Under the pieces are notes generated by a model. It worked only from the letters and a program-made list of their open reading frames with translations, made no database searches and was not told the origin of the DNA. Made by a program: the position numbers and the translations under genes. Positions 1-23,337 of a stretch of DNA of 32,000 bases are shown here, piece by piece (positions within the stretch are counted from its first letter, which is position 1; the number at the start of each line of letters is the position of its first letter). The DNA comes from Acaryochloris marina MBIC11017 (lineage in GTDB: Bacteria > Cyanobacteriota > Cyanobacteriia > Thermosynechococcales > Thermosynechococcaceae): contig NC_009925.1 in assembly GCF_000018105.1 (NCBI RefSeq), positions 5,970,001 through 6,002,000 on the forward strand, read 5' to 3'.

Positions 1-3000
1 CAAACAGCCCAGGTTGCCCAAAGTAAAGAAGTCTCCCTTCCAACAGCATCTCCACCTTCGAGTCAAAAACCAGTTATCTCTGCTCAACCCAACCAGGAAC
101 CGCAAGTATCTAGCACTCAACCTAACAAATCCCAATCCGTTTCAATCCAAACTTCGCTGGAAGCCATAGCTCAAAGCAATAAGGAGGTAGCCACTAAATC
201 ATCCCAACAAGGGACTGACACCTCAACGGACTTACCTAATAGTCAACCTATCGAATCTCAATCCATTTCTCAAACTTCACTGGAGACCACAGCTCACAGC
301 GAGCAGGTTAGTACTAAACCATCCCAACAAGGGACTAACAGCAACACAGCTAAACCAGCTAGTGAGACTATCCAGTCATCTCCAATTCCCCCTATCGATC
401 TGCAACCTAGCAACTCACAGCTTTCCCTCACAAATTCCAAAGAAGACGCTAACCCAAGTAGCTCAACTGATAGCAGCTCTTCAACTGAGACACCCATAAC
501 ATCTAGCTCTCCCACCATACCTAGGGGGAAATCAATAGAAACAACACCTATTGAACAAGTCGCCCAAGCATCTCCTCAGCAATCTCTAGGTGAGAAGCCT
601 TTATTGATTGAGAATTCCGAGACACCAAACTCAACAGCCCAGAGTAGCGAGAGTCAAACAGATACAACTGTTATTCAAAAAATAGAAAGTTCGGCAGCTC
701 AGCAATCTTCTACTGACCACCCGCATACATCGAAGATAGAAACGAACCAAACTAGTCCGACTAGTCCCTCTTCCTCATCAAATGAAACTCCCCCTACATC
801 CAGCACTACCCAAAAAACTGATGAGGATGCGGCACGGGCAACCGTTATTCAAAGAGCAGACGAACCATCTCCCGAGGCATCCACTAAAACAACTTCAAAA
901 CAACAGATTAAAAAAAACAAACAGAAAAAGATTCCCTTACAAGCGCAGCTATCGCGCATGGGGAAACGAGCTAAACAGGATATTCATAAAGTTGGGATTC
1001 AGCTCAAGCAGGCATCTCATTCATTCCCCACTGGTCAATCTAGAGCCAAAACAAAAGGGTTGCAGAAATCCACTAGTGATTCTCCCCAACCGTCAAATCC
1101 TCCATCTATCCAAACCAAATCATCTCCCGACTCAAAGCAATCACCCTCTGAAGTACCTTTAGTCCAAAGTGAAGCCGAGGCTATAGAACAAGTTTCTCCT
1201 CAGGAATCTGTCAGGGAAGAGGCTTTACTAGAGAAAACTGAGATTGCTAACCATGAACAGAATTCTCTAACGGTTCAAGCAGCCCCTGAGTCTAAAGACT
1301 CACCCCAAAAGCATCCTCATGCTACTCCAGCGACCTCTGAACCGACGATTGAACCGACGATCGATCAAGACATACAATCTGACTCAGTCACAGATCTCCA
1401 AAAGAAGTCTGAGTCGGCCTCAGATTTTACAATTACTGGACAGCATCGAAATAATTCTGAATCTTCAACACCCGAGGTTAGTGTTAATCAGCTAAAGACG
1501 ACTTCATCGCCTAGTGCTACTTCAAGTGCTGGGACTGAAACTTCCCGACTAAAAACAAAGAAGTGGGGACAATTACCAGCACACCCCCTAAAACGGCTGA
1601 CCCATCTCAGTCAGCAGGTCATGGACACGGTTAGTCGTCAACTTGAACCTCATCCGAATGAAGAGTTCAATCCATTTCAAAGGCAAGAGCAGAATTTACC
1701 TAAAAACTCAAACCAGAAGCGTGAAGATCAGACCATTAGCCCTGCCTCACTTCACAGATCTGTAAATGGAGATCCCCAACCCTTACAAGATAGTGGTAGT
1801 GAAAATAAATCCGCAGCAACGTCCATTCAATCAGACATTCAAGCGAAGTCCTATTTACCCAATGCAAGTCTAGACACCGCTAGTCTATCAAAGCCTGAAC
1901 TTAGTTCAGATGAACAAGCGCATCTCAACAGTCAAACAGATTACCTCACCGATGTAAGTGCTGAAGAGCATCGCCAAACTCAAGAATTACCCACTGTACA
2001 AAAAGCTGAAGACTCACAATCCTCAAGCCCTCCACCTCCCCAGTCTGCGCAAGTAGACTTTCCTACCTCGAACAGTATTGAGACCACCTCCCCCGCAGGA
2101 GGGGATAGCTCAGCATCAGTCGTTGAGTCACAAACTAATACCCCTATACCTGAATGGCAATTAATTCAGAATCAGCTTGCGGATCGGATCACAAATCTGG
2201 GTTCAGAAATTAGACAGAGGGTTGACCGGTCGATACTCAAACAAAGTTCAAGGAGAAAATTACCTCAACCCACGCAAATCAAGGAAACTGACTCAGCTCA
2301 AATAACAACATCATCTGAAGTTGCGCAGACAGATCAACCACTCAATTCTGCAGTATCTGAGCTGAATGGAGAAAATATTCAAGCCACTACTGAGTCTATT
2401 GCAGACCCAGTTAAAGGCATTGAACAACCATCACTGACTGCTACAGAGCAGCTAGCCTCTACATCTGACGCTGTGACAGAAAGTCCTGTGCAAACAGAAT
2501 CAAGTTCCGTTGTTGTGCCTTCCCAAAAAGATATCAGTCATCCGCAAGCGTTCACGATTGAGCCGTCCATTCAATCTCGCTCTGTAGATAAAGCAAAGAC
2601 TTCTAAGCCACAACAGGATTCAGAACAAAACAATCCAGCTTTGCTCCATGAAAACGAGGACACAATACAGAGGGATAGCGCTGAGACAAGCTCAAGCAGC
2701 TCAGAGCAGCCCATCACCAATGTATCGAGCCAAAGTTCAGCAAACTTTGGTACTGCAATACCAGAAGCGTCTCAAAGTCGAGATCGCAACCGTCCTTTCA
2801 ATTCCCCTATTTCAAAGTTACGTACAACCATTGTCCAGCAATTAACCAACCTAAAACCTAAAAAAACTAAGCCAAAAACTAAGGCAAAGAAACAAAAATC
2901 AGTTTCGTCTCCCGCAAAAATGTCTAGGGAGACTACAGAAACCGATTCGACGACGAGCCTGAACTTGCAGGCTAAACAAGAGGAAACCGCGCAATCAACA

Positions 3001-6000
3001 GAACACCCCAATTCTCCAGAACACCCAAACGTTACTCCAAGTGACGCGGCAGAACAAGCGGTCTCGACTACAAGTATTAGTGACGCTATTCAACGTCAAG
3101 ATATTGCGCCTCAGCAATCATCACCACTTGACCGTTCTGATGTTCCAATCCCTCAATCCAAGACTTCTCCACCTTCAGGATCGCTTCCTCTTCCACAAGA
3201 TGAAGGATCTATACATGGCGAAATAGACGCAAATGAACCCCCAGGAGGTTCGGGTACAAACGAAACAGATGCTAATCCCAACAACATACTCCAGCGTGAA
3301 ACAGAACAAGAGAAATCTCAACCCGAGCGACCTGAAGCTCAAACCCAACCCTTACAGGTTCAAAATGTTTTAGACACAGAATCACCTCTTTCAGACCGTC
3401 CACCTATTCGCGAAATTGCTATTCAAACTAAGGTTGAGCAGCAATCGGCAACTAACCAACCTCAATTTCCCACTAGTCCAACTTCATCTATCCAGCAATC
3501 TAGCCAAACACAGGGGAATCTTTCCAGCGAGAGTAACCAAAGCAACCTGAAAGAGAGTTCAGAGGCAGTTACAGAAGCTGATACCTCAGAAACTTCTAGT
3601 CAAAATTTGGATGGCCCTATTGTCCAAACATCCCAAATTAAGGAACAAGTCGACAACCAACCGAATGGTACTTCCCCAACAATTCAAGCCCAAGAGGACC
3701 AAGGCGGAGCGGCAGTATCCGAACAAAGCTTTTCTGTCTCAAGCCCCCATGTACCCATACCCAATTCTGACAATTCAGCTATAGATTCCACTCTGAATTC
3801 CAAGAATCTCGAATCTCAGGGACATCAAGCCCCACAGGCTCCCAGCAAAAGCAGTGATGCTAGCGGCAAAACGACTACTACAGACGGTATTATTCAACGA
3901 AAGATTGAAGCTCACATTGATAGCGATCAGCCATTCTTTACCCCAAAAGAGGATTCCAGTACCGCCAGCAAGCCGTTAAATGACCAGTCTATAAGCTCAG
4001 AAACTTCTATTCCAGGAAAGACTTCTGCTCAAATAGAGCCCCATACAGAACCATCAAATCTAGAACTAAAGCAAGCATCTACCGTTCCAATTCAATCCGT
4101 TGAAATTTCTGTTATCCAGCCCGCAACGGAGCCACAACTTCAGAAAGACAACCTTGGGCAATCGTTTGATAATTGCGATCGCACCCCAGAATCACCTCTA
4201 GAGCCTGGAGATAAGCTTACAATCCAGCCAACCCCAGAAATCCAACCTATAGAGCAACCCGACCAACAGCAAGCTGTCCCTAATCGCGACTCAGAAACGG
4301 CTCCAACTACTGATGCATCGCTTACAAATGACATACCGAAAGCGACTACAGGGCCTGCCCTACAAGCATCCAGTATCGAGCCGTCCCCCGATCCTAGTAT
4401 CGCTCCTAATGATATTTCAGCAACGTCAGAAATCATCCAGCCAAAACATCAATCCCATATTGGTTCAGAGCTAAAGACCGACCCTGACTTATCTACCGGC
4501 CAGATTCAAGCTAATTCCACTCTCTTGGCTGAATCCAGTAATACTGATACCCCAACACCAGATTTACAAAAACATCCAACTGATAATCTGGGTGAATCCC
4601 CACCCGAAAATGTAGAGCGCATCCAGTCTCAACCAGACCAGAACGAGTCTTCCCACCGTCGGATCATAGAGATTCCAGCTCAACGTCCTGACGGCAATAT
4701 TGAAAAAGCTAACTTATCCGATCAAGATATCGCATCCAGTTCATCCCTGGAACTTAACGAAAATCAAAGCCTGCAAAGAAGTTCAGAGGCCAACTCTTCT
4801 TTGCCAGAGAGGAATTTTGACCCTGCCAATCCCAAACCCTCTTCCAACATTGCTGAACAATCTGAGATTTCAGCACTTCCTCAAGCTGATTCATCCCCCC
4901 AAAAAGTAGAGCATATCCAGCCTCAACTGGACCAGATTGATTCTCCCCACCGTCGGATTATAGAGATCCCAGCTCAACGTCCTGACGAAAATCTCGCAAA
5001 TGATAATTTACACCCTAAGGATAGTGCGTCCAGCTCATCCTCGGACCTCCACGAAGACCCGATCCTTCAAAGGACTGTAGAGATCAACTCTTCTTTGGTA
5101 GAGACAGATCTTGACCGTACCAATAGAGACATCTCCTCAACGATTGGAGAAACATCTGAGGTTGCAGAACTTTCTGCAAAACCTGATTCAAAGCTGCAGC
5201 ATTCAGAAGCAGATACCTCCTCTCTCGCTTCAGTTCAGCCATTATCAACGCCTCCCCTTAAGTCCACGATCCAGCGCCAAGCTCAAGCAGAAGATACCCT
5301 CAACTCGCCTCCTCAACCGATAGATCCGGTAGATGCTCAGCCTGGTTCAGCAGATTCTCTACAACGCCGAGTTATTGAGATAGCAGCTCAATCGCCTGAG
5401 CCCAGACAACCAGAAGGGAATTCCCCAGACCTAACCGTTGCCCAGTTGTTGGCAACGGGCCAGTCGCCTTCTCCCTTGTCCAACATTGCGGACAATTTCG
5501 TTTCTCCGAAATTCATCAGCAATCTATTACCTTCCAGTCAACCAAATCGTAAACATCATTCTCAGAAACTACGGGATTTTCAAAATCCGAATGCACCATT
5601 ACAACGTAAAGATGATGATGAAACAGGACGGTCTGGCGAGGGCTATGAGATAAATACGGAGGATGCGATCGCACCCACAATCCAACCGTCAAACAACCCA
5701 ACACTCCCCTCCAACTGGTCCAGTATCGAAGACCTATTCACAACCCAGCCATCCGTCATCCAACCTAAAGCAGAGAAACCCACTGCAACCCCTGAAGACA
5801 CTTCAGATTTTGTCCTCACCCCCACAGGAATTTACCCAGAAAAGCAAGTCCCAAGGAAAACAGTATTTGCCCAACGAACGGCTCAACCCTTACAAAAGTC
5901 TCCAACTACTGCTCCCCCAGTTTCATCCACGCCCCAAACGACAGAAGTGGTGATGCGTCAATTCCAAACTGAAAAGTTAACTGAACCTGAAGTAGATGAG

Positions 6001-6108
6001 CAAAGTTTCGAAATCCTAGCAAGAGAGATCTATCACGTCCTCCGACAGCGCCTAGAAGTGGAGCGAGAGAGACATGGAGGGTATCAATCTGGTCGTTTAC
6101 CGTGGTGA
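1..6108 (+). CDS. Giant low-complexity Ser/Thr/Pro/Gln/Glu-rich protein, 5'-partial (at least 2035 aa), with a short C-terminal amphipathic helix. It occupies the tape-measure position of a contractile-injection / phage-tail-like module.
   Basis: I translated frame 1 by hand from base 1 and found no stop until TGA at 6106-6108. The ORF-track start at 604 is only a TTG, and the first in-frame ATG is codon 118 of that ORF, so the true start is upstream of the window. The other same-strand frames and the antisense frames are broken into short ORFs. The gene lies 29 nt upstream of the Afp7-like gene on the same strand. The C-terminus reads EVDEQSFEILAREIYHVLRQRLEVERERHGGYQSGRLPW. Confidence 0.8.
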   Translation, partial: QTAQVAQSKEVSLPTASPPSSQKPVISAQPNQEPQVSSTQPNKSQSVSIQTSLEAIAQSNKEVATKSSQQGTDTSTDLPNSQPIESQSISQTSLETTAHSEQVSTKPSQQGTNSNTAKPASETIQSSPIPPIDLQPSNSQLSLTNSKEDANPSSSTDSSSSTETPITSSSPTIPRGKSIETTPIEQVAQASPQQSLGEKPLLIENSETPNSTAQSSESQTDTTVIQKIESSAAQQSSTDHPHTSKIETNQTSPTSPSSSSNETPPTSSTTQKTDEDAARATVIQRADEPSPEASTKTTSKQQIKKNKQKKIPLQAQLSRMGKRAKQDIHKVGIQLKQASHSFPTGQSRAKTKGLQKSTSDSPQPSNPPSIQTKSSPDSKQSPSEVPLVQSEAEAIEQVSPQESVREEALLEKTEIANHEQNSLTVQAAPESKDSPQKHPHATPATSEPTIEPTIDQDIQSDSVTDLQKKSESASDFTITGQHRNNSESSTPEVSVNQLKTTSSPSATSSAGTETSRLKTKKWGQLPAHPLKRLTHLSQQVMDTVSRQLEPHPNEEFNPFQRQEQNLPKNSNQKREDQTISPASLHRSVNGDPQPLQDSGSENKSAATSIQSDIQAKSYLPNASLDTASLSKPELSSDEQAHLNSQTDYLTDVSAEEHRQTQELPTVQKAEDSQSSSPPPPQSAQVDFPTSNSIETTSPAGGDSSASVVESQTNTPIPEWQLIQNQLADRITNLGSEIRQRVDRSILKQSSRRKLPQPTQIKETDSAQITTSSEVAQTDQPLNSAVSELNGENIQATTESIADPVKGIEQPSLTATEQLASTSDAVTESPVQTESSSVVVPSQKDISHPQAFTIEPSIQSRSVDKAKTSKPQQDSEQNNPALLHENEDTIQRDSAETSSSSSEQPITNVSSQSSANFGTAIPEASQSRDRNRPFNSPISKLRTTIVQQLTNLKPKKTKPKTKAKKQKSVSSPAKMSRETTETDSTTSLNLQAKQEETAQSTEHPNSPEHPNVTPSDAAEQAVSTTSISDAIQRQDIAPQQSSPLDRSDVPIPQSKTSPPSGSLPLPQDEGSIHGEIDANEPPGGSGTNETDANPNNILQRETEQEKSQPERPEAQTQPLQVQNVLDTESPLSDRPPIREIAIQTKVEQQSATNQPQFPTSPTSSIQQSSQTQGNLSSESNQSNLKESSEAVTEADTSETSSQNLDGPIVQTSQIKEQVDNQPNGTSPTIQAQEDQGGAAVSEQSFSVSSPHVPIPNSDNSAIDSTLNSKNLESQGHQAPQAPSKSSDASGKTTTTDGIIQRKIEAHIDSDQPFFTPKEDSSTASKPLNDQSISSETSIPGKTSAQIEPHTEPSNLELKQASTVPIQSVEISVIQPATEPQLQKDNLGQSFDNCDRTPESPLEPGDKLTIQPTPEIQPIEQPDQQQAVPNRDSETAPTTDASLTNDIPKATTGPALQASSIEPSPDPSIAPNDISATSEIIQPKHQSHIGSELKTDPDLSTGQIQANSTLLAESSNTDTPTPDLQKHPTDNLGESPPENVERIQSQPDQNESSHRRIIEIPAQRPDGNIEKANLSDQDIASSSSLELNENQSLQRSSEANSSLPERNFDPANPKPSSNIAEQSEISALPQADSSPQKVEHIQPQLDQIDSPHRRIIEIPAQRPDENLANDNLHPKDSASSSSSDLHEDPILQRTVEINSSLVETDLDRTNRDISSTIGETSEVAELSAKPDSKLQHSEADTSSLASVQPLSTPPLKSTIQRQAQAEDTLNSPPQPIDPVDAQPGSADSLQRRVIEIAAQSPEPRQPEGNSPDLTVAQLLATGQSPSPLSNIADNFVSPKFISNLLPSSQPNRKHHSQKLRDFQNPNAPLQRKDDDETGRSGEGYEINTEDAIAPTIQPSNNPTLPSNWSSIEDLFTTQPSVIQPKAEKPTATPEDTSDFVLTPTGIYPEKQVPRKTVFAQRTAQPLQKSPTTAPPVSSTPQTTEVVMRQFQTEKLTEPEVDEQSFEILAREIYHVLRQRLEVERERHGGYQSGRLPW
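133..381 (+). repeat. Two tandem, diverged copies of a unit of about 126 nt (42 aa) inside the giant ORF
   Basis: Unit 1 starts at 133 (QSVSIQTSLEAIAQSNKEVATKSSQQGTDTS...). Unit 2 starts at 259 (QSISQTSLETTAHSEQVSTKPSQQGTNSN...). Shared strings include caaacttc(g/a)ctgga and aaa(t/c)catcccaacaagggact. Confidence 0.7.
4175..4182. repeat. HIP1 palindrome GCGATCGC
   Basis: Exact match read in sequence. Confidence 0.9.
4612..5199 (+). repeat. Two tandem copies of a 294-nt (98 aa) module inside the giant ORF. A third partial copy of its core motif lies at 5362-5400.
   Basis: Module A starts at 4612 (VERIQSQPDQNESSHRRIIEIPAQRPDGN...SLQRSSEANSSL). Module B starts at 4906 (VEHIQPQLDQIDSPHRRIIEIPAQRPDEN...ILQRTVEINSSL). 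The core HRRIIEIPAQRPD occurs at 4654-4692 and 4948-4986. The variant QRRVIEIAAQSPE occurs at 5362-5400. Confidence 0.8.
5665..5672. repeat. HIP1 palindrome GCGATCGC
   Basis: Exact match read in sequence. Confidence 0.9.
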
Positions 6109-6137
6109 ATTTTATATGAAGAGGTTGAATATAAACC

Positions 6138-6713
6138 ATGACCTATAGTGGCTCTCGCAGTAATAATAGTGCCGTTGCTTCAGGTAAGTTAGCGAAGGCA
6201 ACCTTAGTCCACCAACCCACGGACAAGAGTAAAGATATTGAATTTATGTTCAACCCCACAGAATTGGTCTTTCAGCAGTCGATGCGTCTAAATGAAAGCC
6301 AAGGGGCACGGACCGCTAAGGGATTACCCAAGGTCACCTTTGCCTATCCGGAAGCCTGCTCTCTGTCCTTGAGCAATATCTTGTTTGATACTTACGAGCA
6401 AGGAACCAGTGTGATTGATGCCTATATCAGCAAATTGATCAAAGCTTTGGATTTTGATGATAGTGGCGACGCTGCCAACAAACGACCGCCCATCTATATC
6501 TTCACTTGGGGAGACCAGCAATATCTACGCTGCTTTGTCGAGCAAATTACCTACAAACTCACTTTGTTTTTGCCGGATGGTACACCTGTCCAAGCCAGAG
6601 TCGATATGTCCCTAAAGGAAATTGACGAATCAAGCTTAGCAGGGGGAAGCCAGTCTGCCTCTCCCAATCGCTCCCAGGATAGTCGTTCCAGCCGAACAAC
6701 CTTTGGTCGCTAA
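6138..6713 (+). CDS. Contractile-injection-system tube-initiator-like protein (Afp7/Pvc7-type CIS tube N-terminal domain) without a LysM domain
   Basis: The motif pattern matches what I recall for Afp7-family proteins: KATL...IEFMFNPTEL, LFDTYEQGTSV, RPPIYIFTWGDQQYLRCFVEQITYKLTLFLPDGTPVQARVDMSLKE. No LysM-like segment is present. The last 30 aa or so are Ser/Arg-rich low complexity. The gene sits directly upstream of the VgrG gene. Confidence 0.75.
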   Translation: MTYSGSRSNNSAVASGKLAKATLVHQPTDKSKDIEFMFNPTELVFQQSMRLNESQGARTAKGLPKVTFAYPEACSLSLSNILFDTYEQGTSVIDAYISKLIKALDFDDSGDAANKRPPIYIFTWGDQQYLRCFVEQITYKLTLFLPDGTPVQARVDMSLKEIDESSLAGGSQSASPNRSQDSRSSRTTFGR

Positions 6714-6738
6714 AGTACTGAAATTAAGCTAACTGCCC

Positions 6739-8697
6739 ATGCCTGCAACCACCTATATTGCCGAGCCACTTTTAGAAATTGATGGCAAAAAAGCGTCCAA
6801 CGAGCTGATGGAAGATATTCTCCAGATTTCTGTGGAAGAAAGCTTGCACTTACCTGGCATGTTTATCCTGGTGATCAAGAACGACTACTTTTCTGGTCGA
6901 TCTGTTGATGCTCCCTGGCAATATGACGATCTCTTTCAGATTGGTAAAACCATCAAAATCGGCTTTAGCGGCAGTACCACTGAAGCCCAGGACTTTGACG
7001 AAGAGAATCAGGGCTATGTGCTGGATGGAGAAATCACCGGTATGGAGACGAACTTTACTGCGAGTTCTCAAGCCCCTATCGTGATTCGGGGCTACGACAC
7101 GTCCCACCGACTCCATCGAGGTCGCTACAATCGGTCCTTCCAGAATATGACCGACACGGATGTAGTCAAGAAAGTGATTGGAGAAGTCGGAATCCCCGCT
7201 GGCACCATCGATAATAGCGGGTCTCCCCATGACTATATTTTTCAAGAGAATCAGACCAATATGGAATTTCTACGGGAGCGGGCAGCCCGGAATGGGTTTG
7301 AACTCTATGTTCAAGACGGCAAGATGAATTTTAGGAAGCCCAAAGCCAATTCCAATATTTCCCTGACCTGGCTCAAGGATTTGCATAGCTTTAGAGTGCG
7401 GGTCACCAGTGCAGAACAGGTTAAAAGTGTTGAAGTAAGGGGTTGGGATTATGAACGGAAACAAGCCATCGTCTCCACTAAAAATGTTGAGAAACTGCTA
7501 ACCTCCACCGATCATGGCTCTGGCCAGAAACAAAGCACTGTTTTTAATGGCAAACCGACAACGCCCAAAATGATTGTGGTGGATCAGCCTGTCTTTAGTG
7601 CCAAGGAAGCCGATACCATTGCCCAGGCTCTTATTGATGAGCTGGGGGGAGAGTTTGTGGTGGCGGATGCCAGAGCTGAGGGCAATCCTGATTTGAGAAC
7701 GGGACAGGTGGTTCAACTCAAAGATATGGGGAAATACAGCGGCAAGTACTACATCACTGAAACACGCCATGTATTTCAAGATCGGGTTTATTCCACAGAG
7801 TTCAGCGTGCGGGGGTTACGGGGAGGAGATTTACTCTCAACCCTGGCTCCCTCTCAACGACTGCAGGCAGGCCAAACTCTGTTGGTCGGCAAAGTCACGA
7901 ATAACAAAGACCCAAAAGGTTGGGGAAGAGTCCGAGTCAAGTTTCCCACCTTGACGGAGGAGCATGAAAGTAACTGGGCCAGAGTCGTGGCCAGCGGAGC
8001 TGGAAAAGATCGGGGTTTTGACTGTTTACCCGAAGTGGATGATGAGGTGCTAGTGGGGTTTGAACATGGCGATATTCACCGTCCCTATATTGTGGGTGGG
8101 GTGTGGAATGGAAAGGATAGTCCCCCGGAGAAGGTGGAGAGTTCCATTGTCGATGGCAAGGTCAATCTCCGAACGGTGAAAACTCGCACGGGCCATACCC
8201 TCCAATTTGTAGAAGCAGATAAAGATGCCAAAAAGAAAGGCATTTACTTAGATACGGTGTATGGCCACCATTTGTATCTGAATGACAGCGAAAAGTTCGC
8301 GGAATTAAAAACAAAAGAGGGGCATTATGCTCGGCTAGATGATCAAGGCAAAAAGCTAGAAATAAAATCCAAGGGAGGTCATAAAGTCTTACTGGACGAT
8401 AATGGCTCCGCCAAAATCGATATGGTTTCGACGGGAGATATCAATGTTAAATCTGGGACCAGCGGCAGTTCGCGGAAGATTAGCCTGAATGCAGGGGAAA
8501 TCACCCTGACGGCAACGACCAAAATTACGTTAAAAGTGGGTAGCTCATCGATTGAACTCAGCAATTCTGGCGTCACGATTCAGGGGGTTCAGGCTGCCAT
8601 GAAAGGAACTGCCCAAACCAAAATTGATGGGGCTTTGGTGACCGTTCAAGCCTCTGGGGTGAATACCATCAAGGGCTCAATCGTAAAGATCAATTGA
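6739..8697 (+). CDS. vgrG: VgrG-type spike/hub protein (phage gpD-like N-terminus, gp5/baseplate-V OB fold, C-terminal beta-helix repeats); Afp8-equivalent
   Basis: The N-terminal 370 aa or so are gpD-like. The OB-fold signature is GKVTNNKDPKGWGRVRVKFPTL...ESNWARVV...PEVDDEVLVGFEHGDIHRPYIVGGVWNG. The C-terminus carries repetitive beta-helix segments (GHTLQFVE, GHHLYLND, GHYARLDD, GHKVLLDD, ITLTATTKITLKVGSSSIELS). Confidence 0.9.
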   Translation: MPATTYIAEPLLEIDGKKASNELMEDILQISVEESLHLPGMFILVIKNDYFSGRSVDAPWQYDDLFQIGKTIKIGFSGSTTEAQDFDEENQGYVLDGEITGMETNFTASSQAPIVIRGYDTSHRLHRGRYNRSFQNMTDTDVVKKVIGEVGIPAGTIDNSGSPHDYIFQENQTNMEFLRERAARNGFELYVQDGKMNFRKPKANSNISLTWLKDLHSFRVRVTSAEQVKSVEVRGWDYERKQAIVSTKNVEKLLTSTDHGSGQKQSTVFNGKPTTPKMIVVDQPVFSAKEADTIAQALIDELGGEFVVADARAEGNPDLRTGQVVQLKDMGKYSGKYYITETRHVFQDRVYSTEFSVRGLRGGDLLSTLAPSQRLQAGQTLLVGKVTNNKDPKGWGRVRVKFPTLTEEHESNWARVVASGAGKDRGFDCLPEVDDEVLVGFEHGDIHRPYIVGGVWNGKDSPPEKVESSIVDGKVNLRTVKTRTGHTLQFVEADKDAKKKGIYLDTVYGHHLYLNDSEKFAELKTKEGHYARLDDQGKKLEIKSKGGHKVLLDDNGSAKIDMVSTGDINVKSGTSGSSRKISLNAGEITLTATTKITLKVGSSSIELSNSGVTIQGVQAAMKGTAQTKIDGALVTVQASGVNTIKGSIVKIN

Positions 8698-8707
8698 TAG
8701 TGACAAG

Positions 8708-8713
8708 AAGGAG
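8708..8713 (+). promoter_or_regulatory. Shine-Dalgarno sequence AAGGAG for the DUF4280 gene
   Basis: AAGGAG lies 6 nt upstream of the ATG at 8720. Confidence 0.55.
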
Positions 8714-8719
8714 TAGTCA

Positions 8720-9112
8720 ATGGGACAACAAGTCGTCATGGGGGCGTCCTTACAATGTTCTTTTGGAGCAGCACCTAGTTCTTTAATTGTGATTCCCAAA
8801 GGACCACCAGTTCTGACGGGTGGCCCCGCTGCCGCAACTATTATGGACTATGCCCCCATTGCCAATATTCCACCGTTTGGCATGTGTTCTTCCCTGGCGA
8901 ACCCGACGGTCGCCTCGGCAACAGCCGCCGCAATGGGTGTTCTCACCCCGATGCCCTGTATCCCCGTTATTCCAGCCCCTTGGACACCGGGTTCACCAAC
9001 GGTGCTGATCAATAATTTTCCGGCATTAAACAATACATCTAAGTGCTTTTGTACTTGGGGAGGGGTAATTCAGATAACTTATCCAGGACAAGTTACCACT
9101 CAAATTCCTTGA
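8720..9112 (+). CDS. DUF4280 (PAAR-like) spike-tip protein
   Basis: Pattern recalled for DUF4280: GASLQCSFGAAPSSLIV, NIPPFGMCSS, PCIPV...PWTPGSPTVLINN, SKCFCTWGGVIQITYPGQ. The protein is 130 aa with no extension domain. It has a strong RBS and lies immediately downstream of vgrG. Confidence 0.8.
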   Translation: MGQQVVMGASLQCSFGAAPSSLIVIPKGPPVLTGGPAAATIMDYAPIANIPPFGMCSSLANPTVASATAAAMGVLTPMPCIPVIPAPWTPGSPTVLINNFPALNNTSKCFCTWGGVIQITYPGQVTTQIP

Positions 9113-9152
9113 GAAAACGGGGCTGTTAGGGTTGACATTAACAATCCCGAGA

Positions 9153-9335
9153 TTAATCGGACGCCGATTCCTGATCGGATGAGGGTTCCTTCTGTCGTCC
9201 TGCTTTGCGGGTGGATTCCTTAAGTAAAAATTCGATTTGAGCATTGACGCTGCGCAACTCATCCGCCGCCCAACGTTCGAGGGTGTCGTAAAGAGCCTGA
9301 TCAAGTCGTAATAAGAAGCGCTTCTTTTTGCTCAC
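9153..9335 (-). CDS. Arc-type ribbon-helix-helix DNA-binding protein
   Basis: The N-terminus [38 protein letters not shown] is the typical Arc/MetJ-type beta-strand plus two helices. The GTG start overlaps the SPFH stop codon (GTGA). Confidence 0.7.
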
Positions 9336-10219
9336 GTATACAGGGTTCCAGCATTAATGATCGGCTGTGTTGAACTTTCAGAAACCAGGGCCACCAGTAA
9401 GTTGTTTACCATAGCAGCTTTCCGTTCTTCATCCAGGTCTACCACCTGTTGCTCACTCAACCGATGCAGTGCCATTTCTACCATGCCTAAGGCACCTTCG
9501 ACGATTCGCTCTTTGGCTGCAATCACTGCGATCGCTTGTTGGCGACGAAGCATCGCTTGGGCAATTTCAGGGGCATAGGCCAGGTGAGTAATTCGAGTTT
9601 CGATAATATCAACCCCAGCAACGTCTAACCGACGCTGGACTTCCTGTTTAAGCAGGTCGGAAATTTGATCAGGATTCCCCCGCAAAGACTCCTGGGTATT
9701 GTCAAAAATATCGTAGGCATAGCGGTTGGCTAAACTCCGGAGGGCCGTCTCACTTTGAATCGCGACGAAGTCGCGGCAGCTTTCGACATCCAGGGTGGCC
9801 TTGGCTGAATCAATCACTCGCCAAACGACAACTGCTGCAATCTCAATCGGACTGCCCTGGGCATCATTGACCTTCAATCTTTCACTGTTGAAGTTGCGAA
9901 CCCGCAGGGAGACTGGGCGCTTACTGACGATGAAAGGAATGGTCCAGTAAAAACCTGGTTCACGGATACTGCCGATATATTTTCCTAGCAAAATTAATAC
10001 CCGAGCCTGATTCGGATCGACTAGGAAAAAACCACTAGCCAATATCCCTGCCATAGCAAATAATCCAGACCCTAGCCAGAGTTGTGGCCCTGCTAATGCT
10101 TTCTCAAATAGAACAAAGGGAAATAAATACCAACTACTGATCCCCAAAAACAATAAGAGAATGGGCAACACCCCAAACCCGTTAATTTTCCAAGCGGATG
10201 ATTCTTTCGTGGAATTCAT
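9332..10219 (-). CDS. SPFH / band-7 (stomatin-prohibitin-like) membrane protein
   Basis: Two N-terminal hydrophobic helices are followed by an SPFH core ([47 protein letters not shown]...[16 protein letters not shown]). Confidence 0.85.
9528..9535. repeat. HIP1 palindrome GCGATCGC
   Basis: Exact match read in sequence. Confidence 0.9.
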
Positions 10220-22195: not shown

Positions 22196-23337
22196 TACTG
22201 CGGACGACTTGTGACTTAACATTGTGGTAGAGAGATTTGGCACACTGGGAGTATCCCCGCACCTATCCTCCACTCCCATGATTAAAATTGATTTCACCGC
22301 AGAGGAAATCCAACAACTCAATTACGAACGCTATCATCACCCTCACCCACGGGTGCAGCGACGGATGGAAGTGCTCTACTTGAAGAGTCAAGGTCTTTCC
22401 CATACCCAGATCTGCCAGCTTTGTCAGATTAGTCGCCCCACTTTAGCCAAAACTCTTCGTCAGTATCAACAAGGAGGGATTGAAGGGCTGAAGACCCTTG
22501 AATATAAAGGTCAACCGAGTCTACTCAACGCTCATAGCGATAGTGTGAGAGCTTACTTTGAGCAACATCCTCCCCGCACCAGTGCAGAAGCTCAAGCGGT
22601 CATTGAGCAATTAACAGGCATCAAACGCAGTCCCACCCAAATCAAAGCCTTCCTCAAACGCATCGGTTGTCGTTATCGAAAAGTGGGGTATGTGCCGGGA
22701 AAGTCGAGTCTGCCCGAGAAAATTGAGGAGCAAGAGCAGTTTCGACACACTCGCCTTGAACCCTTATTAGAGGAAGCTCAACGCCAAGAGCGTCTTGTCT
22801 TTTTTGTGGATGCTGCTCACTTTGTTCACCGTGCTTATCTAGGGTTTGTCTGGTGCATCACTCGGATCTTCATCCCTTCTCCTTCTGGTCGCCAACGTTT
22901 CAATGTCCTGGGCGCGCTCGACGCTATCACCAAAGACCTAGTCAGCGTTACCAACCACACCTATATCAATTCTCACAGTATGTGCCTGTTACTGGCCAAG
23001 CTGGCGCTACTTGACCCAGTCATACCCATCAGCGTGATTTTAGACAATGCGCGATACCAGAAATGTCAGCTTGTAACGGACTTTGCCGAGATCGTCGATA
23101 TTGAGCTGGTCTATCTGCCCTCCTATTCACCCCATTTGAATTTGATTGAGCGACTCTGGCGTTTTGTACGCAAGGAATGTCTCTATTCAAAGTATTATGC
23201 TGATTTTCCCGCCTTCAAAGGGGCCATTCAACAGTGCATCGACCAGTGTAATGGAGAGCATAAGGCGAAACTCACCACCTTACTATCACTCAAGTTTCAG
23301 TCTTTTAAGAAAGTTAATATCTTAGCCGCCTAGAGTA
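22196..23337 (+). mobile_element. IS630-family insertion sequence (1142 bp) with TA target-site duplication
   Basis: TA occurs at 22194-22195 and at 23338-23339. The imperfect terminal inverted repeats are TACTGCGGACGACTTGTGACTTAAC (left) and TACTCTAGGCGGCTAAGATATTAAC (reverse complement of the right end). A single intact DDE transposase ORF is present. Removing the element plus one TA restores the host reading frame exactly. Confidence 0.85.
22278..23333 (+). CDS. IS630-family (DDE_3 / Tc1-mariner-like) transposase
   Basis: An N-terminal helix-turn-helix region is followed by DDE-type motifs FFVDAAHF, ILDNARYQK and LPSYSPHLNLIERLW. I take the ATG at 22278 (MIKIDFTAEE) as the start. The ORF track extends to a GTG at 22224. 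Confidence 0.85.
   Translation: MIKIDFTAEEIQQLNYERYHHPHPRVQRRMEVLYLKSQGLSHTQICQLCQISRPTLAKTLRQYQQGGIEGLKTLEYKGQPSLLNAHSDSVRAYFEQHPPRTSAEAQAVIEQLTGIKRSPTQIKAFLKRIGCRYRKVGYVPGKSSLPEKIEEQEQFRHTRLEPLLEEAQRQERLVFFVDAAHFVHRAYLGFVWCITRIFIPSPSGRQRFNVLGALDAITKDLVSVTNHTYINSHSMCLLLAKLALLDPVIPISVILDNARYQKCQLVTDFAEIVDIELVYLPSYSPHLNLIERLWRFVRKECLYSKYYADFPAFKGAIQQCIDQCNGEHKAKLTTLLSLKFQSFKKVNILAA

Follow-up and report, generated by a model that had tools for sequence, protein, structure and literature searches.

A six-gene spike operon of Acaryochloris marina and its probable place in a contractile injection system split over at least three co-regulated loci

A spike and tube-initiator operon

The stretch of DNA analyzed here (the window; 32,000 nt, positions 5,970,001 to 6,002,000 of contig NC_009925.1) is from the cyanobacterium Acaryochloris marina MBIC11017, and begins with four plus-strand genes of a contractile injection system (CIS), AM1_5909-5912. 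These are the distal part of a six-gene operon, AM1_5907-5912, whose products would make up the spike hub at the center of a lineage-II CIS, the Streptomyces/cyanobacterial type, together with the complex that initiates its inner tube. The genes of the machine would be spread over at least three chromosomal loci, with the sheath and associated genes at AM1_0269-0278, the wedge at AM1_6403-6406 and the spike at AM1_5907-5912, transcribed as one regulon under inducing low far-red light. This reading, together with the assembly proposed below, is considered likely. It is based on gene identities, operon structure, the lack of neighboring CIS genes, purifying selection and the frequency of breaks in relatives, all observed here, and on the literature for the other two loci and their co-regulation; the order of assembly and the role of the giant protein AM1_5909 we infer.

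The operon comprises, in order, genes for a 73-aa protein (AM1_5907), Cis5 (AM1_5908, 187 aa), the giant protein (AM1_5909), Cis7 (AM1_5910), VgrG (AM1_5911) and a DUF4280 protein (AM1_5912), as read from contigs bearing an identical Cis7 protein. The first two genes lie upstream of the window along with the first 383 codons of the giant gene, which starts 1149 nt before it. Window base 1 is thus codon 384, and frame 1 is open from there to a stop codon at 6106-6108. The stop codon of AM1_5907 overlaps the start codon of the next gene, the spacers between the giant, Cis7, VgrG and DUF4280 genes are 29, 25 and 22 nt, and GAGG and AAGGAG are found 5' of the Cis7 and DUF4280 open reading frames (ORFs), respectively. 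In published MBIC11017 RNA-seq data (mBio 2024), the log2 ratios of white to far-red light expression (WL/FR) from AM1_5907 to AM1_5912 are -2.55, -1.93, -1.42, -1.31, -0.90 and -0.62, a steady 5'-to-3' drop that is expected from a single promoter upstream of AM1_5907. The initial annotation of the window, made from the sequence alone, had proposed a four-gene operon; the operon and its short gaps stand, and the published gradient bears out co-transcription, but there are six genes and not four.

Profile searches found no sheath, bulk tube or wedge gene in the window or within 10 kb on either side of it, and no CIS domain in the remaining 23 kb of the window, where the initial annotation had recognized no wedge, fiber, ATPase or cap gene. 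The upstream flank of the operon carries HU and aminotransferase genes on the other strand and no sheath gene; a complete canonical locus directly upstream, which would have made the window the ordinary end of a known locus type, was therefore not found. Capsid, portal, terminase and integrase genes are all absent from the vicinity of the operon, and the operon is kept in at least five Acaryochloris lineages.

Assignment of the hub proteins

Profile searches place the Cis7 and DUF4280 gene products in PF19266 and PF14107, and the initial identification of an Afp7-like protein, a VgrG and a DUF4280 protein is upheld (Table 1). AM1_5908 belongs to PF06841 and fits CIS5_fam (4e-21) better than CIS1_fam (1e-6), with a CIS5 score below the NCBIfam equivalog cutoff. 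It matches All3323/All3324, Alg1/Alg5 and Afp5, and AM1_5910 matches Alg7. The PDB matches of AM1_5910 are the tube initiator of Anabaena phage A-1(L) (8kea_P, 1.3e-9), the AlgoCIS LysM protein (7aeb_M, 7e-7), 9gtp_P (2.8e-6) and Afp7 (6rao_G, 1.9e-3), with alignments that span only the tube domain of these 228-282-aa targets. Profile and PDB searches found no LysM domain on AM1_5910, although one is present in Afp7, Alg7 and Cis7. Cis7 orthologues in related cyanobacterial loci are likewise short (148-183 aa), and the lack of LysM is therefore a trait of the lineage rather than a defect.

The spike protein AM1_5911 scores 366 bits with the NCBIfam model NF033848 (VgrG_rel, cutoff 275). Its scores with the TssI models of type VI secretion systems (T6SS) both fall below cutoff (TIGR03361, 66.9 bits with a cutoff of 186; TIGR01646, 86.5 bits with a cutoff of 121.8). 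With TssI models under their cutoffs and neighbors of the CIS5 and CIS_tube types, a T6SS vgrG island was rejected, in agreement with the extracellular CIS (eCIS) or phage ancestry that had been favored from the sequence. AM1_5912 is IglG-like (1.9e-13). Three Pseudanabaena loci encode DUF4280 proteins 80-81% identical to it, with VgrG on one side and gp25 on the other, and Acaryochloris is thus not unique in having DUF4280 instead of PAAR.

The Cis7 gene is nucleotide-identical in three strains, and on the same contigs VgrG and DUF4280 have synonymous divergences (dS) of 0.29 and 0.22. An identical Cis7 gene beside diverged VgrG and DUF4280 genes suggests a recent recombination tract. Because the contigs had been picked by the identity of their Cis7 proteins, the comparison is biased, although this bias alone leaves the zero synonymous changes unexplained.

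Sheath and wedge loci and their co-regulation with the operon

A phage-tail-like element of A. marina was described by Sarris et al. (2014) as AM1_6406-6403 plus AM1_0270-0276, with AM1_5907-5912 not listed. In the annotation of the RNA-seq study (mBio 2024), AM1_0271 is a phage tail sheath protein (K06907) and AM1_6406 a GPW/gp25 phage baseplate assembly protein (K06903). The wedge locus AM1_6403-6406 would consist of gp25, a baseplate J-like gene, a P2-gpI-like gene and a fourth gene. In strain MU13 of the same study, the top 35 genes induced by low far-red versus high white light include AM1_0269-0274 and AM1_0278, and also AM1_5907, AM1_6406 and AM1_6403. In MBIC11017, log2(WL/FR) is -2.60, -1.70, -2.17, -2.09, -1.62, -1.92, -1.12, -1.31 and -1.92 for AM1_0270 to AM1_0278, and -1.47, -1.63, -1.47 and -2.29 for AM1_6403 to AM1_6406. 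The word "contractile" is absent from that paper, and the regulon is not discussed there as a CIS. The other two loci have been on record since 2014, and published data already show the co-regulation. In this cyanobacterium with chlorophyll d, the whole regulon ranks with the genes that low far-red light induces most strongly.

A split locus was one of the options raised in the initial annotation, with sheath and tube upstream. The split is supported; however, sheath and tube are not directly upstream, where HU and aminotransferase genes are found, but, by published annotation, at AM1_0270-0276, with the wedge at AM1_6403-6406. The module had also been described as incomplete. Given published sheath and wedge loci that are co-induced with it, this is the wrong reading: the system is probably scattered, an ordinary split lineage-II CIS, and the seemingly incomplete injection system would be one third of it.

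The sequence TTAGACCTYTT occurs as three direct repeats in an 87-nt stretch (L001:1719-1805) that is 113-199 nt upstream of the start of AM1_5907 and about 2.1 kb before window base 1, with no other copy in 52 kb. The outer two are kept in all Acaryochloris strains examined, and the middle copy is degenerate in some. These repeats are a candidate operator of the far-red/low-light regulon, possibly for the LuxR-type regulator AM1_0267. Published expression data for strain MU13 show orthologues of AM1_0267 and of the sensor kinase AM1_2240 co-induced with the CIS genes. The Phormidesmis CIS cluster carries a histidine kinase and LuxR-type response regulator pair between cap genes (L010:1206-2999), a candidate dedicated CIS regulator.

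Related cyanobacterial loci and a recurrent break

The gene order in Ancylothrix, in Phormidesmis and on a Pseudanabaena plasmid is small protein, Cis5, large protein, Cis7, VgrG, PAAR, gp25, J, P2_I and a protein of about 450 aa. An AAA+ ATPase (Cis15) and a Pvc16-type cap (Cis16) are present in related loci. A J-protein alignment scan was carried out with one genome per species, and the other components were mapped by tblastn in the best 80 cyanobacterial wedge loci, 60 of which had enough upstream sequence to be informative. VgrG is upstream on the same strand in 42 of these 60, there is no VgrG anywhere in the locus in 17 (with at least 9 kb of upstream sequence), and in the remaining one the spike module is inverted. 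The junction between spike tip and gp25 is thus a recurrent breakpoint, broken in 18 of the 60 informative loci at the same site as in Acaryochloris, and the layout seen in Acaryochloris is one of many. With about 30% of related loci broken at this point, the prevalence of CIS in cyanobacteria is probably underestimated. Catalogs that need clustered genes miss such systems, as in the 0/2 score of Acaryochloris discussed below.

Other arrangements are also seen. In Altericista, the sheath, tube, small protein and Cis5 genes are divergent from gp25-J-P2_I, with no VgrG nearby, and the CIS genes of Gloeothece PCC 7424 are scrambled in another manner. The 74-kb Oscillatoria nigro-viridis plasmid pOSC7112.04 has a stand-alone gp25-J-P2_I wedge module (L012:15977-19905) with DUF4157 toxins, YbjN-domain proteins and two ATPases as neighbors, and no VgrG on the stretch examined. 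CIS modules can apparently travel separately on plasmids. Ancylothrix (L007:6836-7045), Pseudanabaena (L013:1636-1845) and Gloeothece (L008:9274-9483) have a gene for a Nif11-like leader peptide of about 69 aa, at most a few kb upstream of their small-protein/Cis5 genes and followed in two of the three by a PBP-like protein of about 800 aa. Acaryochloris does not have the Nif11-like gene.

Selection, alternative explanations and proposed assembly

The ratio of non-synonymous to synonymous substitution rates (dN/dS) was calculated between MBIC11017 and a diverged strain; dS across strains is up to 0.29. VgrG (dN/dS 0.01; 3 non-synonymous and 106 synonymous changes), DUF4280 (0.00; 0 and 19) and Cis5 (0.08; 3 and 11) are under strong purifying selection, similar to the comparison gene PNPase (0.00; 1 and 92). 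The giant gene is fast-evolving (dN/dS 0.57-0.61, with 70-76 gapped columns between strains), yet it is still open over 7.3 kb. Purifying selection and the stop-free giant gene therefore effectively rule out that a CIS or myophage tail lost its wedge and sheath and left a decaying, functionless remnant, as had been argued from the intact reading frames. Such a remnant would be in keeping with the empty 10 kb on either side, with the count of no eCIS in the genus by Geller et al., and with a cyanophage tube initiator as the best PDB match of Cis7. However, all of its ORFs are intact, its genes are transcribed and regulated, and it persists in the several lineages noted above with none of the phage genes listed there nearby, so that we regard decay as highly improbable. 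A prophage remnant was rejected, as there are no phage genes nearby and purifying selection is strong.

An accessory, or orphan, spike cassette is a somewhat better alternative, if still an improbable one. On this explanation, another part of the genome would encode a complete CIS that has a VgrG, Cis7 and PAAR of its own, and AM1_5907-5912 would provide it in trans with a different spike and lumen protein. The module does stand physically by itself, with unrelated genes on both sides, and cyanobacterial genomes can carry more than one CIS-related locus, as in Rivularia with its two wedge loci (L053 and L075). However, the seven published genes AM1_0270-0276 and the four published genes AM1_6403-6406 match a sheath module and the gp25-J-P2_I-p445 wedge block of relatives; they fill these modules, which leaves no place for another set of spike genes. 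The loci of relatives, moreover, have the same cassette as their only spike set. Least credible of all is that the six proteins alone make up a minimal, non-contractile needle that is sufficient in itself. The operon does provide spike and tip, along with two proteins of the tube family and a long one of the lumen type, and an uncharacterized minimal assembly had been listed as an option in the initial annotation. It is not supported, as there is no bulk tube protein (the sole PF06841 gene scores as a CIS5 adaptor over CIS1), every relative embeds these genes in a full CIS, and sheath and gp25 genes are induced together with the operon.

In a lineage-II CIS encoded at three co-regulated loci, the VgrG protein would trimerize and DUF4280 would cap the trimer. 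Hexamers of Cis7 and then Cis5 would fit the spike, with its threefold symmetry, to the sixfold tube. The giant protein may be anchored by its conserved C-terminal helix in or near the spike/initiator cavity, with the disordered chain in the tube lumen. Wedge proteins from the distant locus would assemble round this hub, and the tube and sheath from the third locus would polymerize last.

Several points weigh against this reading. The content of AM1_0270-0276 and AM1_6403-6406 rests on published annotation. No Acaryochloris is found among the listed matches of a tblastn search of PLSDB plasmids with a sheath-N/gp25/J/P2_I/cap query, among the best 80 loci of the J-protein alignment scan (all at 57% identity or more, making this result uninformative on absence), or among the best 120 proteins in searches with Altericista J and Ancylothrix gp25. 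The genus is also unmentioned in the supplements of the paper on the Anabaena system tCIS and of a 2026 tail-fiber catalog. Geller et al. (2021) scored 0/2 Acaryochloris genomes as eCIS-positive, which fits a split locus failing a clustering criterion, and equally a missing core gene. The AAA+ ATPase (Cis15) and cap (Cis16) have not been demonstrated in the A. marina genome, and no particle has been observed, the system being known from genes and transcripts.

The giant protein and its small relative

The giant protein of MBIC11017 has 2418 aa, and those of other strains have 2466-2476 aa. It is rich in Ser (15.8%), Gln (10.5%), Pro (10.3%) and Thr (9%), hydrophobic residues make up only 17%, and its longest Pro-free stretch is 45 aa. 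There is no Pfam match to the part in the window and no NCBIfam or PHROG match to its two ends, and the profile of the C-terminal motif has no match in the PDB. Searches of PDB, Pfam, NCBIfam and PHROG likewise gave no relatives for the 73-aa protein or the giant termini. In a single-sequence AlphaFold2 (AF2) prediction of its last 400 residues, 287 have pLDDT <50, and the C-terminal helix (Table 1) is the sole confidently folded element. The gene is expressed and far-red-induced (mBio 2024).

The giant belongs to a family with the N-terminal motif LGIQNPLL...LGQ...LSPLGAVSL and the C-terminal motif LExLAREIYxRLRQRLEIERERxGxYSGRLPW, and about 40 cyanobacterial loci keep the latter. When 1.84 billion representative proteins were searched with the last 110 residues, there were 180 matches of 53-2880 aa, with the matching region nearly always C-terminal; those that are named are cyanobacterial. 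Homologues are found at the same gene position, before Cis7/VgrG, in about 40 relatives. The middles are unrelated: 272 aa in Ancylothrix and Laspinema, 1308 aa in Phormidesmis, 2531 aa in Pseudanabaena and about 1000-1700 aa in many Nostocales, for a family span of 272 to about 2900 aa. Two tandem duplications are found within the Acaryochloris gene (Table 1), which lengthens via local tandem duplication. In a 1874-aa family member from Anthocerotibacter panamensis (P0407), residues 175-337 are a GHL10 glycosyl-hydrolase-like domain, and the C-terminal anchor is present as well.

The initial annotation had treated the giant as being in the position of a ruler. The position holds: the gene lies between tube genes and initiator/hub genes. 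However, its long center is not mainly helical and it belongs to no named tape-measure family, and a classical helical tape measure was ruled out by composition. The family at the tape-measure position thus appears, from its sequences, to have conserved ends and an intrinsically disordered middle, and not to be a classical ruler. Within the system, real potential for novelty is confined to this family and its putative small paralogue. Published accounts of lineage II report no typical Afp14 tape measure, yet here a disordered protein with conserved ends is found, with a putative small paralogue, which makes length control and lumen loading testable.

Triplets of a hydrophobic residue, Gln and Arg/Lys are in excess in the giants of Acaryochloris (18 observed, 3.1 ± 1.7 expected), Phormidesmis (16 observed, 2.1 ± 1.4 expected) and Pseudanabaena (42 observed, 2.6 ± 1.6 expected). 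Expectations are from shuffles, and for all three proteins 0/2000 reached the observed count. Most of the DUF4157 cargo proteins that were sampled from related loci also have such triplets in their N-terminal regions. In AlgoCIS, the N-terminal region of the cargo is a disordered loading sequence that depends on the AAA+ ATPase. A small protein upstream of Cis5 is kept in about 25 loci, and its profile aligns with that of the giant C-terminal motif (profile-profile probability 88%, E 3e-6, 32 columns). AM1_5907, the most induced of the six genes, may encode the giant's anchor helix as a separate small protein. By analogy with Cis6 of tCIS it could plug the spike, or it could compete with the giant for the same site. 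The triplet excess, the triplets in DUF4157 cargo N-termini and the anchor-like AM1_5907 are the reasons for tentatively proposing that the giant is a spike-anchored, disordered, cargo-like filler of the lumen rather than a helical ruler, a proposal we think possible but rather doubtful. If true, lineage-II CIS would set the content of the lumen, and possibly particle length, via an expandable disordered protein and not a rigid ruler.

Comparison with known systems

The hub gene set and order are the same as in lineage-II CIS, which include Streptomyces CIS-Sc and the cyanobacterial PLTS/eCIS of Sarris 2014 and Chen 2019. A Streptomyces plasmid locus (L094) carries, in order, genes for a small protein, a low-complexity protein of 1020 aa, Cis5, Cis7, VgrG, PAAR, gp25, J and P2_I. 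The 1020-aa protein is Ala/Pro/Gly-rich and ends like the giant (...ELARRLL...LRTELRRGRDRTG...). Compared with these systems, Acaryochloris has its genes at three or more distant loci, a Cis7 without LysM, a DUF4280 tip for PAAR and a large protein of 2418 aa. Additionally, Cis5 is before the large protein in Acaryochloris and after it in Streptomyces.

In the structures of Anabaena tCIS (7B5H/7B5I) and AlgoCIS (7AEB), Cis5 and Cis7 are the first two tube layers on Cis8 (VgrG), with the PAAR-like Cis10 as tip, and the small Cis6 plugs the spike cavity. The tCIS is encoded in a single cluster (all3313-3327), and the LysM domain of its Cis7 ties the tube to Cis9 and Cis12. Acaryochloris differs in its split genes and in the absence of that LysM, and the lineage also differs in that Anabaena Cis7 is not among the PDB matches of AM1_5910. 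The published AlgoCIS Alg14 is a helical ruler, whereas the Acaryochloris giant is Pro-rich and disordered.

Like the orphan vgrG-PAAR islands of T6SS, the Acaryochloris operon encodes spike and tip apart from sheath and baseplate, for assembly in trans. However, its VgrG fits VgrG_rel, the cassette adds Cis5, Cis7 and a gene at the tape-measure position (none of them in T6SS), and it appears to be the only spike set and not an alternative one. The giant resembles T4 gp29, Afp14 and Alg14 in the location of its gene before initiator/hub genes, its conserved termini, its length-variable middle and its internal duplication, and the GHL10-bearing family member recalls the lytic domains of many phage tape measures. 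Known eCIS tape measures are predicted to be helical. Unlike tape measures, the giant has no similarity to a named family, a disordered middle, a tenfold length range among close relatives and a dN/dS of about 0.6.

Other features of the window

The features of the operon and its downstream boundary are given in Table 1.

Table 1. Coordinates of features in the 32,000-nt window, numbered from window base 1.
Feature	Position	Strand	Evidence
AM1_5909, 3' 6.1 kb (codons 384-2418), giant protein at tape-measure position	1-6108	+	Open frame from base 1
Tandem duplication in giant gene, 123-nt unit, 1.8 copies	117-340	+	Tandem Repeats Finder (TRF), 78% matches
Tandem duplication in giant gene, about 290 nt (98 aa), with ...HRRIIEIPAQRPD... 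block	4593-5175	+	Repeat search, 73% identity, spacing 294 nt; visible in translation
Conserved C-terminal helix (putative anchor) FEILAREIYHVLRQRLEVERERHG, then ...SGRLPW	5998-6072	+	AF2 helix, fragment residues 365-389, pLDDT 80-91
AM1_5910, Cis7/Afp7-type tube initiator, 191 aa, tube domain only	6138-6713	+	PF19266 CIS_tube, E 1.2e-18, residues 28-165
AM1_5911, VgrG-related spike (gpD hub, gp5 OB fold, C-terminal beta-helix-like region)	6739-8697	+	PF05954 Phage_GPD, PF04717 Phage_base_V, weakly PF10106
AM1_5912, DUF4280 PAAR-like spike tip, last operon gene	8720-9112	+	PF14107, E 1.3e-37
SPFH/Band 7 gene, downstream boundary, outside the system	9332-10219	-	PF01145, E 1.8e-26

The convergent SPFH gene had been taken for an operon. 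A 92-aa ORF with a TTG start (9026-9304, minus strand) lies between SPFH and DUF4280 and overlaps the 3' end of the latter by 87 nt. It is uncalled in every assembly and is probably spurious, which leaves SPFH as a single gene. Beyond the operon, the window carries housekeeping or unrelated genes, namely SPFH, pentapeptide, QueG, PNPase, SNF2 helicase, CHRD, histidine kinase, IS630-type transposase, HtpG, 2TM, FMN reductase and Ser/Thr kinase-TPR genes. The IS630-family transposase (DDE_3 plus helix-turn-helix (HTH) domains, 22224-23333), between the histidine kinase and HtpG genes, is the sole mobile-element gene of the window and is 13 kb away from the CIS operon.

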